Shown: piece by piece, positions 33,001 through 38,676 of the stretch
How positions within the stretch are numbered: the stretch's first letter is position 1
How the letters are laid out: every line of letters begins with the position of its first letter
From: Candidatus Brocadiia bacterium
Lineage (GTDB): Bacteria; Planctomycetota; Brocadiia; SM23-32
Assembly (NCBI GenBank): GCA_046538485.1
Contig: JBKHIT010000049.1
Location: forward strand, 1 to 38,676
Length of the DNA stretch: 38,676 nt
Direction of reading: 5' to 3'
Made by a program: the position numbers

Positions 33001-36000
33001 CCAAGCCATCCCCATCGATATCAGTTTCACGAAGTTTGAGGATTCTCAACTGGCTTCGTTTCTCCAGATCGCTGAGCCCGTTATTCGTAAGGTTCGAACC
33101 GGAGAGATCCAATTCCTCGAGAGTCTCGGAGTAGGCCAGATGCTCAAGTCCTTTTCCCGATACCTCCGTGTGGGAAAGGTCAAGAATCCGCAAATTCGTA
33201 AGTGCTGCAAGATCTGATAGACCTTTATCGGTCACGTTGGTTGACCTGACCGAGATCACCTGCAACGATTCGAGTTCTCCGACATATTCCATTGCTCTAT
33301 CGCTGATTCTCAGGCCTCCAAGTCGCAGTTCCTGCAGATTACTGAGCCCACGGATGTGTACAAGACCTCGGTGGGTAACTTTCGTGTACGATAGATCAAG
33401 TCTTCGGAGAGTGTTCAGGCCTTTTATGTGCGCCAAACCGGTATTACTGACCTCGCCATGTGAGAGATCAAGATCCCGGAGCTCTTTGAGTTCGTGGAAA
33501 TAACGCAGTCCCCAACCGGTCACTTTTGTACCGTCAAGCTGAACTTTCCGAAGTTTCTTGAGTCCTTTCAAGTGAATCAGGCTTATATCGGTTACGTCGG
33601 TACCGTGAAGACTCAGCAAGCGCAACCCTTCAAGCCCTTCCAACTGCGACATCTGAGTCTCTTTTGTATCATCCGGCATCTGAAGACCAGGGACATTCTC
33701 ACTGTTAATCTGCTCGATAAGAGCTCCCAATTTTACACTTTCAGCCTTCTTGTTAGGTTTAACCCACCAATACTGGCATTCCGGGATACTGACAGCCTTT
33801 TTCGCCGGCGTTTTTCCCAGCAATTTTGCTCGGAATCCAGCGCGCTTAACATACACTTCCAGAGCCAATTCCGAATTGAAGGTTCTGGGGCCGTAAGACT
33901 CTGAGTCTCCGTAGGAAATGTTCGCCAGAACTGTAATCCCCAGCAAAAAAGCCATGACGGTACATGTCGACTTATACTTTCTCATTCCTGACTCCTTCTT
34001 ACCTGTGTGCCCTGAAATTAGCATGTATTAACGCTGGAACACGCCATTGCACGAATGAACCTCCGCCGACTGGCACGTTCAGCGTGTCGCCGCAGTATTT
34101 AGCTTTCTAATCTGCTCAATAACAGTATAGTGTATATAGCCTTTTGTCAAGATCCAACGCCCCCTCACATCGCTGAAAAAACCTTTTTCACAATCAGCAC
34201 ACTTAACCCCTTTGTCTGTTGGGAGAATCGGCTGAATATGGTATCTTGTTCTCGGAAATCGTTATTTGACACAATCCGCATCCTGGAGGGAATAGGATGT
34301 CTGAAGCTCACATCCTGATCGTTGAAGATGATGAAGACCTTGCAGACGCCCTTGCGCTCGCACTTCAAGGGTCCGGTTATACCGTAACCCACACCGTCAC
34401 CCGCGAAGCTGCTCTTGAGCTTGCCACCCAGAATCCACCAGATCTCGCCATTTTTGATGTTATGTTGAAACGGATTGACGACGGAATACAGCTAACACAT
34501 GAATTCCGTGCCGATGAAAAACTCTGCAACGTTCCCATCATCATGCTGACGGCAATCAACCAGGCAACAGATTTCAACCTGGATAAGGAAACCGACGAGG
34601 GTTACCTGCCCGTTGATCTATTCCTTGAAAAACCCGTTGATCCGCAAGATTTACTCGATGAAACAGTGAGACTTCTGCGTGAGGGAGGAGGTAGCTTAGG
34701 TGACATCGGAAGATGATATTATTCAACAGGCCGCTATTGTTGCGCATCAGATCAAGTCTCCCGTCAGTACACTCCGGACGATGGTTCGCACATTGCTGGG
34801 CGGTTTCGCGGGTGAATTGAGCGAAGATCAACGCAAAGTCCTGGAAGCGGCTGATCGCAAATCCGCCGAGGCGATGGAAACGATCAGAGCTCTTCTGTCG
34901 CTCTCTGAAGCCCGGCAACAAATGCCTACCCAAGAAACATGCGATCTCGTCCTCTGCGCTCAACAGGCTTGTGAACGGTACCGCGACGAAGCAAAAGAGA
35001 AAAATCTGGATCTTAATTGCACGTACGCTGCGGAACAAGCTGCCGTTTCAATGAGCAAAGACAATGTAACGGAGGCCCTTACCGCGCTCCTGGACAACGC
35101 CGTTAAATATACACCGGAGGGGGGGCAAATCCTTCTTCAAGTCTGGACCGATTCTGAAACGGAGCGGGCCTGCGCCACCGTCTCTGACTCGGGTATCGGA
35201 GTCCCTGAAAAAGAACGTGATAAACTTTTTCGACCTTTCTTTCGGGCCAGCAACGCGCGCGAAGTCATCCAATCGGGCACGGGCCTGGGGTTACCCTTTG
35301 TCCGAACAATCGCAGAAAATGCCGGTGGACACGTCAAGGTCGATGAATCAGAGTTCGGGGGAGCAAAATTCTCGCTTGTATTCCCCCGAGTTTGTCCATT
35401 ATCCAGCGCGGATAAGGGAAAAACCGAACAGCAAGCCGAACCAAGCTGCCGGGTTGTGGTAATCGGTGGGGTTGCCGCAGGCCCAAAAGTAGCCGCCAAA
35501 ATTAAAAGGCTGGACCCAAAGGCGGACGTCACCATCGTTGAAAAAGGACAGGTCCTTTCCTACGCAGGCTGTGGACTTCCCTACTACATATCAGGAGTCG
35601 TCGAAAACCAACGTGAACTTATATCAACCCCGGAAGGCGTCGTGCGGGGTCCCGATTATTTCGAACGAGTCAAATCCGTCCACGTTATGAACCGCACCGA
35701 AGCACTCAAAATAGACCGTGATAAATGTCAGGTCCTGGTCGAAGATATGATCAGCGGCGACAAACACTGGTTGCCGTACGACAAACTTGCCCTCTGCACC
35801 GGCGCCGTCCCGATCGTCCCCACTATTCCGGGTGTCCAGCTCGATAACGTCTACACGCTCCATGGGCTTGAACACGCCGAGGGAATTAAGGAAGACCTTG
35901 CCGAACAACAGGCGAAAGACATCTTCATCGTTGGAGGCGGGCTGATCGGCGTCGAAATGGCTGAATCTCTCGTTTCGGCCGGCTCGCGTGTAACCCTCGT

Positions 36001-38676
36001 CGAAATGCTGCCCCAATTGCTGCCGAATATTTTGGATCCTGAAATGGCCGAGTTGTTGCGCCGACATTTCGAGACCAAAGGGGTGCGAGTTATGCTCAAT
36101 ACCCGGGTAACGGGATTTGAGGGCAACGGCAGAATACGCCGAGTTGTAACGGATGAGAGGGCATATCCTGCTGATATGGCCATTATGGGCGTCGGCGTCC
36201 GACCCAATGTCAAACTCGCCAGCGACTCCGGACTCGACCTGGGCGAGACCGGCGCCATCAAAGTCGATGATCACATGCGCACCTCCGATTCCGCTATCTT
36301 CGCCGCCGGTGACTGTGTCGAGGCTCATGACCTCATCAACGACGAGCCAGCGTACGTTCCCCTTGGCTCTACCGCCAACAAACAAGGACGAGTCGCGGCC
36401 ATCAATATCTGCGGGGGAGAAGAATCGTTTCCCGGTATCACTGGCACAACAGTTTGCAAAGTCTTCGACTATACCGTGGCCAGAGCCGGCCTGACGGAAA
36501 AAGAAGCCAGGGATCAGGGACACGATCTTGTGATCGCGATCACACCCGGGCTCGACCGGGCACATTTCATGCCTCACGCCGCCATGATCATCACCAAATT
36601 GATCGTCGATTACAAATCCAAAGAGCTTATCGGTATCCAGGTCGTCGGCCCCGGTGAAGCCGCCAAACGGGTCGACGTAGCCGTCGCGGCAATGACCGGG
36701 AAACTCGACATCGATTCGATATCCAAACTCGACCTCTGCTACGCCCCCTCCTATTCCGAAGCTCTCGACAACCTCCACACAGCCTGTAACGTGGCAAAAA
36801 ACAAACTCGAAGGCTATATGGCGGGTATTTCGGCCTGCAAAGTGAAAGAAAAACTCGCGCGGGGCGAAGATATAATGCTTCTGGATGTCCGATCCCACGG
36901 CGAACTGAATGAAGCCAGCATCGATGGAAGCACACATATCCCCCTGGCAGCCCTCAGAGGCCGACTCGGTGAACTCCCGCGCGAAAAAGAAATCATTGTC
37001 TTCTCAGGCGTGTCCCTCTCCGCCTACGAAGCCGCCATCATACTTCAGGCCAACGGGTTCGAAAATGTCAAAGTCATGGACGGCGGCATCATCATGTGGC
37101 CACACTGCACCAACGAACCGTGATGCTGTCGCAATTTGAATTCTGATCACACCCGGGGAAATCAAGTCTATCCGGACGAGAATGCCTGCTCGGTTACGGC
37201 GAGAACGGCAATTGAGAGTTTAGAGGTGAAAGTAAACGGGAAAACGACATTCTCAACTCTTAACCGCCCTCATCCGCCCTTCCATTTTGCGTCCTGCCTC
37301 TGTTCGGATATACTGGTTTTTCTCACGATCCCCTTAATTGAGCGCAAAATCCCCGTGAAAATTGTACTGACATGTGACGCCCCTGCCAGCTCCGAGGTGA
37401 AGGGCCATCTGCCGGAAGATATCGGCGCTGAACACGACGCCAAGAGCACCATCCGCGCCCTCACAGATGCCCTCGCTGACAACGGCCACGAGGTTGACGT
37501 GCTCCGTCTGACACGTGATTTCCCCCGAGAGATCCAGCAACTCGACCCCGATCTCGTCTTCAATATCGCTGAAGGGATCCGGGGACGAACGCGCGAAGCC
37601 ATCGTACCCTCCTGGCTCGACCATCTGGCCATTCCTTATACCGGTTCGGATGGCCTCACTCTCTCTCTTACACTCGATAAAGCCCGCGCAAAAGAAATTG
37701 TCCGTGGGCGCGGAGTGCGGACCCCAAATTTCCGGCGAGTTTCGCATCTCGACCAGCTTTCGACCTCCCAACTCGAGTTCCCATTGTTCGTCAAACCCGT
37801 CGGAGAAGGCTCAAGCATGGGCATCCGTTTCTCCTCCCGCGTGAACGATCCGGAGGAACTTGAAAATCAGGTGACGTGGGTGCTGGAAGAATATGATCAG
37901 CCATGTTTGGTCGAAGAATTTGCGCCCGGCCCCGAATACTGCGTCGGATTCCTTGGGAATGGAAATCCCAAAACCCTGCCGATCATCGAAGTGAAGTGTG
38001 AGGGCAGTTTTTATTCGTACGAACATAAGAACCAACACAAGAAAAAGCTCACCTGTCCCGCTGACATCTCCCCGAATCTGACGCGGAAACTCATCCGCAT
38101 GGCACGCAGATCGTTCCACGCCTTCGATTGCCGCGACCTGGCGCGGGTTGATCTCAAAATCGACGCCGAGGGTCACCCCACTTTCCTGGAAATCAATCCC
38201 CTGCCGGGCCTGAATCCCGATTTCAGCATCTACCCCCACCAGGCCGAGGCAGGCGGAATTCGTTACAATACGCTGATCGGCCAAATTGTATCGCTGGCCG
38301 CCGAACGCAACATGCCAAAAACCGAAAGGATACCCTCATGAATGACCCCAAAGACTGGCACTGGCAACTGCAAAACAGAATTACCACGATCCCCGATCTC
38401 GAACAGTATGTCTCACTTTCACAACAGGAAAAGGCCGACATCCGGGCCGCCAGCGAGGAGTTCACCTGGAGTATCACCCCATACTACGCCGGCCTGATGG
38501 ACCCCCACGATCCCGACTGCCCCATCCGACGCCAGGCTATCCCGGCCGTTGAAGAACTGCGCGACGAACTCGGCGTGCCCGATCCGCTCGAAGAAGGTAA
38601 ACACTCACCTGTCGAACTCGTCATTAGGGTCTACCCCGACCGCGTCGCGTTCTGCGTCGGAAACCGATGCCCCGTT

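Follow-up and report, generated by a model that had tools for sequence, protein, structure and literature searches.

The question raised by this locus is what a cytoplasmic histidine kinase with no sensor domain ahead of its catalytic core might respond to, and what the receiver encoded alongside it might control. The survey's finding had paired a stand-alone receiver with a 'sensor-less' kinase fused to a flavoenzyme, and re-examination of the window (the whole 38.7-kb stretch of DNA analysed) recovered the same two ORFs with the same overlap, 17 nt (34700-34716) shared on the + strand. With modest confidence, we favour the reading that the pair is built on a 'trigger-enzyme' kinase that signals to hydrogenase-associated receivers, reporting on NADH or on sulfane-sulfur/oxidant status.

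34285-34289, + strand: Shine-Dalgarno-like GGAGG, 7 nt 5' of the receiver ATG (sequence reading)
34297-34716, + strand: stand-alone receiver gene (139 aa, P0002; ORF call)
34683-34691, + strand: Shine-Dalgarno-like GGGAGGAGG, within the receiver 3' end and 8 nt 5' of the kinase GTG
34700-37123, + strand: fusion gene, kinase core + linker + Npsr-type flavoenzyme + rhodanese (807 aa, P0001; GTG start)

The fusion ORF has no in-frame start upstream of 34700, which is its first start after a stop, and the 17-nt overlap suggests translational coupling of the receiver and kinase genes. The proposed pairing is strengthened by the overlap, by the internal Shine-Dalgarno-like run and by recurrence: nine of 80 related loci (L004, L007, L057, L012, L010, L021, L055, L064 and L079) have a receiver of the P0002 type no more than 350 nt from the fusion gene, L048 has one at a distance of 2.5 kb, and no other neighbour of the fusion gene recurs in the 80 loci. 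P0002 matches Pfam Response_reg (6.2e-17, residues 6-121 of 139) without an output domain, and by alignment possesses Asp11/Asp12, the phospho-acceptor Asp54, Thr85 and Lys112. Asp11, Asp54 and Lys112 are invariant in the receiver alignment (A3), Asp10/Asp12 nearly so, and position 85 is Thr or Ser; judged from its sequence, P0002 is a single-domain (CheY-like) response regulator. A point against the favoured reading is that receivers of this type are also found in genomes that lack the fusion: five of 120 genomes have one scoring ≥141 bits, and at E ≤1e-28 the count rises to 17 of a set of 121 in which the own genome is counted.

The N-terminus of the fusion protein is predicted to be a HisKA-type kinase core with all of the catalytic boxes, joined to the flavoenzyme by a short linker:

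34724-34915, + strand: HisKA/DHp hairpin (residues 9-72; Pfam HisKA, 4.3e-7)
34745-34747, + strand: codon of the phospho-acceptor His16 (by alignment)
35060-35389, + strand: HATPase_c catalytic domain (residues 121-230; Pfam, 2.8e-22)
35390-35449, + strand: variable linker from kinase to flavoenzyme (residues 231-250, ~20 aa)

Structure prediction places the helices of the DHp hairpin at residues 4-33 and 42-73, with His16 in the first helix within AHQIKSP. The ATP-binding boxes comprise Asn133 (N), Asp163/Gly165/Gly167 (G1), Phe177/Phe180 (F) and Gly193/195/197 (G2), and of these Asn133, Phe180 and the G1 and G2 residues are invariant in 119 homologues. A Pfam rerun returned the domain set described earlier with near-identical E-values, and the worry then voiced over the weak HisKA score is of no concern because His16 is invariant both in 119 aligned homologues and in 188 of the 188 sequences covering the position. 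The query has 15 residues ahead of His16, with no N-terminal sensor or membrane segment, and since the stretch ahead of the phospho-His is just 8-52 residues long (median 18) across 121 fused homologues, the term 'sensor-less' is true of the whole family. A search for longer forms gave 98 matches, all of them ordinary kinases and none with the flavoenzyme. The linker, 14-23 residues long across the family (median 19), is predicted to be disordered (pLDDT <50 at residues 235-244).

The remainder of the protein, residues 251-800, aligns end to end with solved Npsr/CoADR-RHD enzymes at E 9e-141 to 2e-84, the best match being the A. fulgidus NADH-dependent persulfide reductase (AfNpsr, 6pfz, 9e-141), and the others being S. 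loihica Npsr (3nta/3ntd), B. anthracis CoADR-RHD (3icr) and the E. faecalis CoA-persulfide reductase (8a56):

35450-36334, + strand: FAD/NAD(P)-binding Pyr_redox_2 domain (residues 251-545; Pfam, 1.9e-66)
35570-35572, + strand: codon of the redox Cys291 (motif SYAGCGLPYY; aligns with AfNpsr Cys42)
36455-36772, + strand: Pyr_redox_dim dimerisation domain (residues 586-691; Pfam, 3.4e-16)
36842-37099, + strand: rhodanese-like domain (residues 715-800; Pfam Rhodanese, 3.2e-11)
37004-37006, + strand: codon of Ser769, which replaces the catalytic Cys (aligned to AfNpsr Cys519)

The protein also matches Pfam Pyr_redox (1.4e-21). Shared with Npsr are the single redox Cys, the FAD/NADH folds, the dimerisation domain, the C-terminal rhodanese domain, the Glu of the NADH-specificity site (Glu435-Met436-Leu437, aligned to AfNpsr Glu183-Met184-Met185) and the conserved AfNpsr-type loop above the CoA pocket (STPxGxVR; T310, G313 and R316 seen), while the 250-residue histidine-kinase core at the N-terminus is an addition that Npsr does not have. 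Cys291 is found in 201 of 201 aligned sequences, and Cys291 and Cys539 are invariant among 119 homologues. The NCBIfam CoADR equivalogs fall below cut-off (TIGR03385/NF007123, 404.2 vs 578.8 and 382.4 vs 458 bits); the model for H2O-forming NADH oxidase gives 263 bits, and PDB matches include Npx (1e-69) and Nox entries. The earlier assignment to a CoADR/NAD(P)H sulfur oxidoreductase type stands as far as a complete flavoenzyme is concerned, and is refined in that the module resembles Npsr more closely than it does a strict CoA-disulfide reductase.

The missing rhodanese Cys reported earlier is borne out, with Ser769 at the position of AfNpsr Cys519 and Ser774 in place of the loop Arg in an active-site loop reading FSGVSLS. 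The Cys/Arg pair is retained in all 59 stand-alone proteins and in 64 of 121 fused proteins, with seven state changes on the tree, and the Cys is lost in 57 of the 121 fused vs 0 of the 59 stand-alone forms. This loss, a new observation here, indicates on comparative grounds that the sulfur-accepting Cys is probably dispensable in fused forms only; a test of phylogenetically independent pairs gave no support for an association of Cys loss with fusion (median p 1) and was uninformative.

The fusion architecture is a large, conserved family present in at least seven phyla. Of 7999 candidates scored in a homologue search, 4353 matched at E ≤1e-3, and the lengths, coverage and domains listed earlier for the best 120 were reproduced (740-839 aa; 83-99%; PF02518 with PF07992/PF02852 in all, PF00581 in all except P0087). 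None of 120 further genomes sampled from the same phylum had the full fusion, and a literature search found no publication on a kinase-flavoenzyme fusion. Fused and stand-alone enzymes interleave on the tree, another new observation here, with stand-alone 560-aa enzymes 58-61% identical to the fused flavoenzyme, 10 changes of fusion state in a 120-row tree (at least six forced by starred branches) and 13 in a 180-row tree. The kinase module has been lost or gained so frequently that the enzyme evidently works without it, a point against the trigger-enzyme reading. The protein could be an enzyme first, a metabolic persulfide/CoA-disulfide reductase that the kinase-receiver part regulates or tethers, and that account would fit the repeated loss or gain of the module, the fused module being as conserved as stand-alone enzymes, and the own genome lacking another close CoADR/Npsr gene (the next matches are only 30% identical), so that the fusion may do housekeeping. 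We regard this as decidedly unlikely: a kinase without its own input would have no message for the enzyme, conservation extends to the phospho-His and to a dedicated receiver, and the sulfur-acceptor Cys, essential to Npsr turnover with external persulfide according to PMC7969121, is what 57 of the 121 fused forms have lost. Since that loss is confined to fused forms, it runs opposite to what an enzyme-first role predicts.

The anatomy, the receiver pairing and the absent rhodanese Cys described by the survey all stand, and for the trigger-enzyme reading we infer, as the most economical choice, its further proposal that the flavoenzyme is the input gating the kinase. Several observations favour such an input indirectly: no member has another sensor, both catalytic centres are invariant, the rhodanese Cys is dispensable in fused forms only and the receiver clade accompanies NAD(P)H-linked hydrogenases (see below). 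Against gating, the sole connection between kinase and flavoenzyme is the variable, low-confidence linker of 14-23 residues, C-terminal to the ATPase domain, whereas ordinary sensors have helical linkers. On the favoured reading the locus would encode a cytoplasmic two-component pair whose kinase input is an entire flavoenzyme, the C-terminal module acting as an NADH-dependent CoA-persulfide/disulfide reductase of the Npsr/CoADR-RHD type. NADH would reduce the flavin-Cys291 centre and sulfane sulfur, disulfides or O2 would reoxidise it; solved relatives of the flavoenzyme are dimeric, and its redox or occupancy state may change the contact of two N-terminal kinase cores, which would set His16 autophosphorylation and phosphotransfer to Asp54 of the receiver.

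Class I (HisKA) kinases with redox input include the FAD-PAS protein MmoS, the LOV kinases, and ArcB/RegB with Cys/quinone sensing. The query resembles them in its DHp-CA core, cognate receiver gene and presumed redox cue, but its input would be a complete oxidoreductase of ~560 residues instead of a PAS, GAF or LOV domain, and it follows the ATPase domain after a flexible linker, where theirs sits N-terminal on a signalling helix; the nearest known precedent for this topology is the C-terminal P5 regulatory domain of CheA. Trigger enzymes are metabolic enzymes doubling as regulators, and here likewise an active-looking enzyme would report its own substrate or cofactor state; what sets the query apart is its covalent fusion with a histidine-kinase transmitter, and no trigger-enzyme kinase with a flavoprotein disulfide reductase was found described in the literature search.

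Candidates for the cue are NADH, persulfide, CoA disulfide and O2, and because the rhodanese sulfur-acceptor Cys is gone, NADH/oxidant balance is favoured over external persulfide here. The same wiring might instead respond to oxygen, peroxide or general disulfide stress, with the Cys291-flavin centre working as in NADH oxidases and peroxidases and oxidants shutting down O2-sensitive hydrogenases. The two DNA runs in which at least half of the sampled words recur carry the labels microbial mat metagenome and salt lake metagenome, settings in which oxygen would be expected to fluctuate. The homology to NADH oxidases/peroxidases, the query clade's lack of the sulfur-acceptor Cys and the NADH oxidase activity of AfNpsr, the nearest solved relative (PMC7969121), would all suit such a cue, but similarity to Npsr/CoADR is far higher (404 vs 263 bits; 9e-141 vs ~1e-69), the CoA-pocket loop is conserved and 64 of the 121 fused members keep the sulfur-accepting pair, and we think an oxidant cue unlikely.

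As to the output of the proposed trigger-enzyme kinase, P0002 falls inside a 49-row clade of single-domain receivers (SH-aLRT 98), the great majority of which are linked to hydrogenases; its grouping with the receivers of 3b-type operons is weakly supported (SH-aLRT 80). Receivers of this clade are usually encoded inside NAD(P)-linked hydrogenase operons or next to them, a new observation here, the operons being group 3d-like HoxEFUYH, group 3b-like sulfhydrogenase and [FeFe]/NuoEF-type operons, and are most commonly placed immediately after the maturation protease. The fusion gene itself abuts a hydrogenase operon in four of the 80 loci; in L021, L048, L055 and L064 the receiver ends a HoxEF-U-Y-H-protease operon, and this operon and the fusion gene are convergent. 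For 20 fusion genomes in which no receiver adjoins the fusion gene, the best receiver match was placed using a profile built partly from Hox-operon receivers, so that such receivers are best matches partly by construction: in 12 the match directly follows a [NiFe] large subunit, with the maturation protease in between in 11 (G004 has no identified protease ORF) and no kinase gene in any of the 12 stretches, in three it lies beside NuoEF-, HyhB- or NuoF/GltD-like genes, in three it lies elsewhere, and in two no match was found. In control genomes, which lack the fusion, another kinase is encoded beside six of 10 such receivers (6TM, GAF, FHA-GAF, or fused to an [FeFe]-hydrogenase-like domain), and the cores of these kinases are the nearest to the query core outside the family (99-118 bits, against 86 bits for its best paralogue in the own genome). 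Two clusters of protease-receiver fusion proteins, 52% identical, were also detected.

Because the receiver clade normally sits in or beside such operons, the likely output of the pair is post-translational control of cytosolic hydrogenases, possibly via the maturation protease; control is probably not transcriptional, because the receiver lacks a DNA-binding output. Through such control, H2 turnover would follow the NADH pool and/or how much sulfur is available as an alternative electron sink, and the pair would probably couple hydrogen metabolism to the redox or sulfur state of the cell. H2-sensing systems combine HupUV/HoxBC with the HupT/HoxJ kinase and the sigma-54 regulator HupR/HoxA. 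Like these and the putative sensory [FeFe] hydrogenases, the pair would be two-component signalling dedicated to hydrogenases, but with an NADH/sulfur flavoenzyme in place of a regulatory hydrogenase as input. In the Thermococcales, the sulfur switch links the regulator SurR with an NSR/CoADR-type sulfur reductase and hydrogenases, and the shared logic would be joint regulation of two alternative reductant sinks, a CoADR-family sulfur reductase and the NAD(P)-linked hydrogenases. SurR differs from the query kinase in being a DNA-binding protein switched by redox state; the comparison implies no homology, and the link in bacteria is purely genomic.

In this organism the hydrogenase link rests on receiver homology, because the window contains no hydrogenase gene. 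The pair might sense redox state here yet act on a target unrelated to hydrogenases, the association belonging to other receiver branches; the empty window would agree with this, as would the absence of hydrogenase genes within 6 kb in the query's own clade (L003, L004, L006 and L007), the three of 20 fusion genomes with the receiver elsewhere, and the paralogous receiver on contig C72. We consider it improbable, given the placement of P0002 in the hydrogenase-linked clade and the paralogue on C10 immediately upstream of hydrogenase-like genes. Further, a group 3b-like hydrogenase operon of the own genome, its best NCBIfam matches being sulfhydrogenase subunits, lacks a receiver behind HycI, the place at which G003, G135 and G139 have one in the orthologous operon.

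The C72 paralogue adjoins redoxin and sulfatase genes, with no hydrogenase, and contig C10 also holds a HupUV-like cluster.

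The receiver and the kinase-flavoenzyme fusion are encoded on the same strand, with the following boundaries for the two ORFs and for the Pfam domains of the fusion:

34297-34716 (+): receiver ORF, 139 aa, Response_reg (Pfam)
34700-37123 (+): fusion ORF, 807 aa
Residues 9-72 of the fusion: HisKA (Pfam)
Residues 121-230 of the fusion: HATPase_c (Pfam)
Residues 251-545 of the fusion: Pyr_redox_2 (Pfam)
Residues 586-691 of the fusion: Pyr_redox_dim (Pfam)
Residues 715-800 of the fusion: Rhodanese (Pfam)

The domain set and scores quoted in the survey's finding were reproduced by Pfam, and the 17-nt overlap it described between the two ORFs is borne out by their coordinates. 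A purine-rich, Shine-Dalgarno-like run lies ahead of both starts, with that of the fusion inside the receiver gene; overlapping genes with an internal run of this kind are the usual signature of translational coupling. A search of sequencing runs listed DNA runs and no RNA run. The description of the kinase as sensor-less also held, as the ORF has no possible upstream extension and only 8-52 residues precede the phospho-His across the family. In the AlphaFold model of the fusion, which is confident (mean pLDDT 89.3, pTM 0.70), the kinase part forms a two-helix DHp hairpin (residues 4-33 and 42-73) followed by a normal ATPase domain, and pLDDT falls below 50 at residues 235-244, between the ATPase domain and the flavoenzyme. 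A 437-aa antisense ORF (35624-36937, -) within the conserved fusion gene is a mechanical listing with no sign of being a real gene.

The closest solved relative of the enzyme part (residues 251-800) is the NADH-dependent persulfide reductase (Npsr) of Archaeoglobus fulgidus (6pfz, E 9e-141), followed by Shewanella Npsr, a Bacillus anthracis CoA-disulfide reductase with a rhodanese domain (CoADR-RHD) and an Enterococcus CoA-persulfide reductase, while the query scores under the cut-offs of the NCBIfam CoA-disulfide-reductase equivalogs. As described in PMC7969121, Npsr is distinguished from CoADR by an extra rhodanese domain of ~100 residues, in which the surface residue Cys519 is the first sulfur acceptor; Cys42, beside the FAD, is the active-site Cys, the CoA pocket is closed by a loop of residues 60-66, and NADPH is excluded by Glu183/Met184/Met185. 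Set against this description, the query aligns Cys291 with Cys42, carries STPEGVVR at the pocket loop and has Glu435/Met436/Leu437 at the Glu183/Met184/Met185 site, but differs in that Ser769 replaces the sulfur-accepting Cys519, which bears out the absence of the rhodanese Cys. Based on these correspondences, the query is predicted to be Npsr-type, with the flavin-side chemistry and NADH preference kept and without the external sulfur acceptor.

Among 5.8 billion proteins searched, 4353 matched the fusion. The best 120 are 740-839 aa in length, share the same architecture at 48-68% identity and, as had been stated, carry generic names ('FAD-dependent oxidoreductase' or 'sulfur reductase-like enzyme/rhodanese'). 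Of 599 pattern matches among reference genomes, 585 code for relatives. The loci kept for comparison (n = 80) span Planctomycetota (Brocadiia including Kuenenia, Phycisphaerae, and Pirellulales), Thermodesulfobacteriota, Verrucomicrobiota, Lentisphaerota, Hydrogenedentota, Fibrobacteraceae, Anaerolineales, Myxococcota, and Thermoanaerobaculia. Both catalytic centres are strictly conserved, with His16, the N/G1/G2 boxes, Cys291, Cys539, the NADH-site Glu435, and many structural glycines invariant in 119 homologues, and the kinase and enzyme are joined by a linker of 14-23 residues with no sequence conservation. Proteins of at least 1414 aa (98 matches) were all ordinary multi-domain kinases with PF07992 in none, which would speak weakly against sensor-bearing versions of the fusion. 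From the short N-terminus and the lack of long forms with the flavoenzyme, the family is a transmitter with nothing before it and an enzyme behind. One 740-aa member (P0105) lacks the H-box helix, and its enzyme part is nearly identical to a 554-aa stand-alone protein, P0254 (branch lengths 0.00 and 0.02); either the kinase module was lost very recently or the genes were called too short.

When searched with residues 251-807, fused proteins were recovered at 60-75% identity, and after them came many stand-alone proteins of 560 aa (58-61%), intermingled with more distant fused ones; free genes without an upstream kinase were confirmed at five loci (L071, L073, L077, L078, and L080). The fused/free label changes 10 times on a 120-sequence tree, with at least six changes forced by strongly supported branches, and 13 times on a 180-sequence tree, and the query lies within a purely fused clade of 27 (support 100). 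All 59 free enzymes retain the rhodanese Cys/Arg pair, against only 64 of 121 fused ones, and the Cys state changes seven times on the tree; much of the Cys loss represents one clade, however, and an independent-pairs test of fusion against Cys loss is uninformative (median p 1). This distribution suggests that efficient turnover of external persulfide may have become dispensable after fusion, with the flavin-Cys centre still needed. An enzyme-first role of the fusion competes with the flavoenzyme acting as an input; the loss of the rhodanese Cys in fused forms alone runs counter to such a role.

Clustering of all ORFs within 5 kb of the fusion gene in the 80 loci and the window revealed only one widely recurrent neighbour, a receiver of ~124-140 aa marked by the motifs DDDPD..., D(V/L)MM..D.G, and KP(V/I)(D/E)P. 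This type lies within 350 nt of the fusion in the window and nine of the 80 loci; in a tenth locus the distance is 2.5 kb. Its placement varies between upstream, downstream, and convergent; at most loci the fusion gene is thus an 'orphan'. At L057 the receiver is located between a GAF kinase and the fusion gene, and at L010 it follows a formate-dehydrogenase-like molybdoenzyme. The latter molybdopterin oxidoreductase appears as two consecutive ORFs (L010:5236-7326, -), a split that is possibly due to a selenocysteine TGA, and the receiver after it is convergent with the fusion gene. A second cluster, of ~440-aa proteins upstream in nine loci that are mostly close relatives, was treated as lineage-specific.

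Twenty fusion genomes without an adjacent receiver, picked for contig size and taxonomic spread, were searched with a profile of 11 receivers. Each of the first five had one outstanding match (139-151 bits; runner-up at most 124) and in all five the receiver was directly behind a [NiFe]-hydrogenase large subunit, within a HoxEF-HoxU-HoxY-HoxH-protease operon in three (the Kuenenia stretch begins at HoxU) and a small-subunit/large-subunit/HycI operon in one, while in the fifth (G004) the large subunit was the only gene identified upstream. A long ORF in G004 that would fuse the receiver to a protease was rejected as a low-complexity over-extension with an internal Met start. Among the other 15 genomes, the best match was behind a large subunit and protease in seven, beside NuoEF-like, HyhB-like, or NuoF/GltD-like genes in three, and elsewhere in three, with no receiver match at E ≤ 1e-30 in two. 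No kinase gene was present in the 12 hydrogenase-linked receiver stretches. At four of the 80 loci (L021, L048, L055, and L064; Planctomycetota and Victivallales), the fusion is convergent with a Hox operon that ends in the receiver.

An even sample of 120 other genomes from the same phylum served as a control; none encoded the full-length fusion, 18 had the free enzyme, and receiver matches occurred in five at 141 bits or more and in 16 at E ≤ 1e-28. Seven of ten control receivers inspected were in or near hydrogenase sets ([NiFe] 3b-like, Hox-like, or [FeFe] with NuoEF), while the annotated stretches of L100, L103, and L105 either lacked a nearby hydrogenase gene or had a single one 1.5 kb away. 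A different kinase was beside the receiver at six of the ten loci, with PilS-like 6TM, GAF, FHA-GAF, REC-PAS, and N-terminal [FeFe]-hydrogenase-like types represented, and the kinase cores of L098 and L101 were the closest to the query core outside of the fusion family (99-118 bits). The [FeFe]-hydrogenase-like type occurs at two loci, where it has a NuoF/GltD-like gene with an [FeFe] hydrogenase on one side and a receiver of the same clade on the other:

L106:6501-8498 (-) and L107:4622-6625 (+): 665-aa histidine kinase, N-terminal half [FeFe]-hydrogenase-like (Fe_hyd_lg_C and Fe-S motifs)

On a phylogenetic tree, the receivers fall into a single clade of 49 members (support 98), separate from OmpR/NtrC-type receivers. 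Within it, a Hox-type subclade of 17 rows is well supported (96), and the query receiver groups, with weak support (80), with receivers from 3b-like and [FeFe] operons. The control loci and the tree indicate that the clade is hydrogenase-associated and served by different kinases, the flavoenzyme fusion among them. The enrichment of hydrogenase-linked receivers in fusion genomes is real, yet partly built into the profile, and shared ecology may be its cause.

The receiver gene is nearly always behind a maturation endopeptidase gene, and the protease-then-receiver order was found in 11 of the 20 fusion genomes, four of the 80 loci, and two of the ten control loci. The two proteins also occur as natural fusions:

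L109:1495-2418 (-): HoxW-type maturation protease-receiver fusion (P0284; also P0285)

In one Hydrogenedentota genome, protease and receiver are a single 307-aa ORF, and a scan of 1.84 billion representatives recovered one further full-length fusion of 285 aa, 52% identical over both halves. Though small in number, the two fusions have diverged from one another, which speaks for a genuine protein and for receiver and protease being functionally tied. The gene order, the two fusions, and the absence of another kinase from those operons lead to a specific, if rather unlikely, scenario in which the phosphorylated receiver of a persulfide/NADH 'trigger enzyme' kinase would act directly on the HoxW/HycI endopeptidase, such that the proteolytic maturation of group 3 [NiFe] hydrogenases would be switched on or off depending on whether sulfur is there for NADH to be discharged onto. 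If true, bacteria would have a post-translational equivalent of the archaeal sulfur/hydrogen switch, present in PVC bacteria (the anammox genus Kuenenia among them), Thermodesulfobacteriota, and Hydrogenedentota.

The organism's own assembly (5.19 Mb, 143 contigs) has one fusion copy and no close free CoADR/Npsr gene, the next matches being 30% identical. The best paralogue of the query kinase core (86 bits) adjoins a receiver of the same clade. Contig C115 carries a four-subunit operon with HycI, for which the best NCBIfam matches are sulfhydrogenase beta, gamma, delta, and alpha subunits (all below cut-off) and which is 60-63% identical to an operon of another genome (G003) that ends in the receiver; on C115 no receiver follows. 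A further set is found on contig C10:

C10:1445-16000 (L129): own-genome hydrogenase set

Its order is HupUV-like [NiFe] small and large subunits, a PAS kinase, a sigma-54 receiver/regulator and a second same-clade receiver with a REC-kinase, the last two directly upstream of HyhB/HyhG-like and group-4-like membrane hydrogenase genes. A rival explanation is that the receiver's target in this organism is not a hydrogenase, in line with the absence of hydrogenase or sulfur genes from the window, where the neighbours are ordinary Planctomycetota-type, and with a third receiver paralogue that lies beside a redoxin gene (C72); on the other side are the C115 and C10 sets and the hydrogenase association of the clade.

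Histidine kinases are normally described as an N-terminal sensor with a C-terminal transmitter, whereas here a whole, apparently active flavoprotein disulfide reductase is behind the transmitter. In the mechanism we propose, NADH would reduce the flavoenzyme dimer and sulfane sulfur, disulfide, or O2 would reoxidise it; these changes would alter how the two tethered kinase cores are arranged or how freely they move, and with that the phosphorylation of the receiver. As it has no output domain, we infer that the receiver acts by binding, with the maturation protease or the hydrogenase itself as the leading candidate target. Since the rhodanese Cys is lost in the query clade, the NADH/oxidant balance is a likelier cue there than external persulfide, while a sulfur cue remains attractive for Cys-bearing members, as group 3b-type hydrogenases and Npsr both handle polysulfide and draw on a common NAD(P)H pool. 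Oxygen or peroxide is a rival cue.

None of the domain families is new, and databases already contain the architecture, though under generic names; what is new is a two-component system with an unusual C-terminal input, predicted to be enzymatically competent, and a candidate layer of hydrogenase control. A full-text literature search (titles and abstract starts, for the library and terms used) found no description of a kinase fused to a CoADR/Npsr enzyme or of a receiver gene closing hydrogenase operons. Little is known about the regulation of soluble NAD(P)-linked hydrogenases outside of the Proteobacteria and cyanobacteria. Candidates are put forward here for many anaerobic lineages, anammox bacteria among them: a kinase, a receiver clade, and, as a possible target, the maturation protease. 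A flavoenzyme input, if true, would be a new way to couple metabolism to a phosphorelay; purified proteins offer a direct test system, and the fusion module could become a genetically encoded NADH/persulfide reporter.

Directly after the fusion in the window is a D-Ala-D-Ala-ligase-family ATP-grasp gene (37136-38341, +), the listed TTG start of which is probably ~75-100 residues too far upstream, as the family match starts near residue 107. As an operon partner this Ddl-like gene was rejected, having only one match (itself) among the ORFs of the 80 loci; in relatives, the genes downstream of the fusion are unrelated (beta-lactamase-like, another Pyr_redox_2 protein, and one without a family). 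The second of these, in a close relative (L007:8399-9580, +), is a 393-aa pyridine nucleotide-disulfide oxidoreductase of the 'N-terminal to SelD' type. Upstream, the window encodes a 1875-aa protein with zinc ribbons and HEAT repeats (21631-27258, -), a 1406-aa protein with Laminin_G_3 and GH123_N domains (28494-32714, -), and a 427-aa leucine-rich-repeat protein (32741-34024, -) divergent from the receiver gene.
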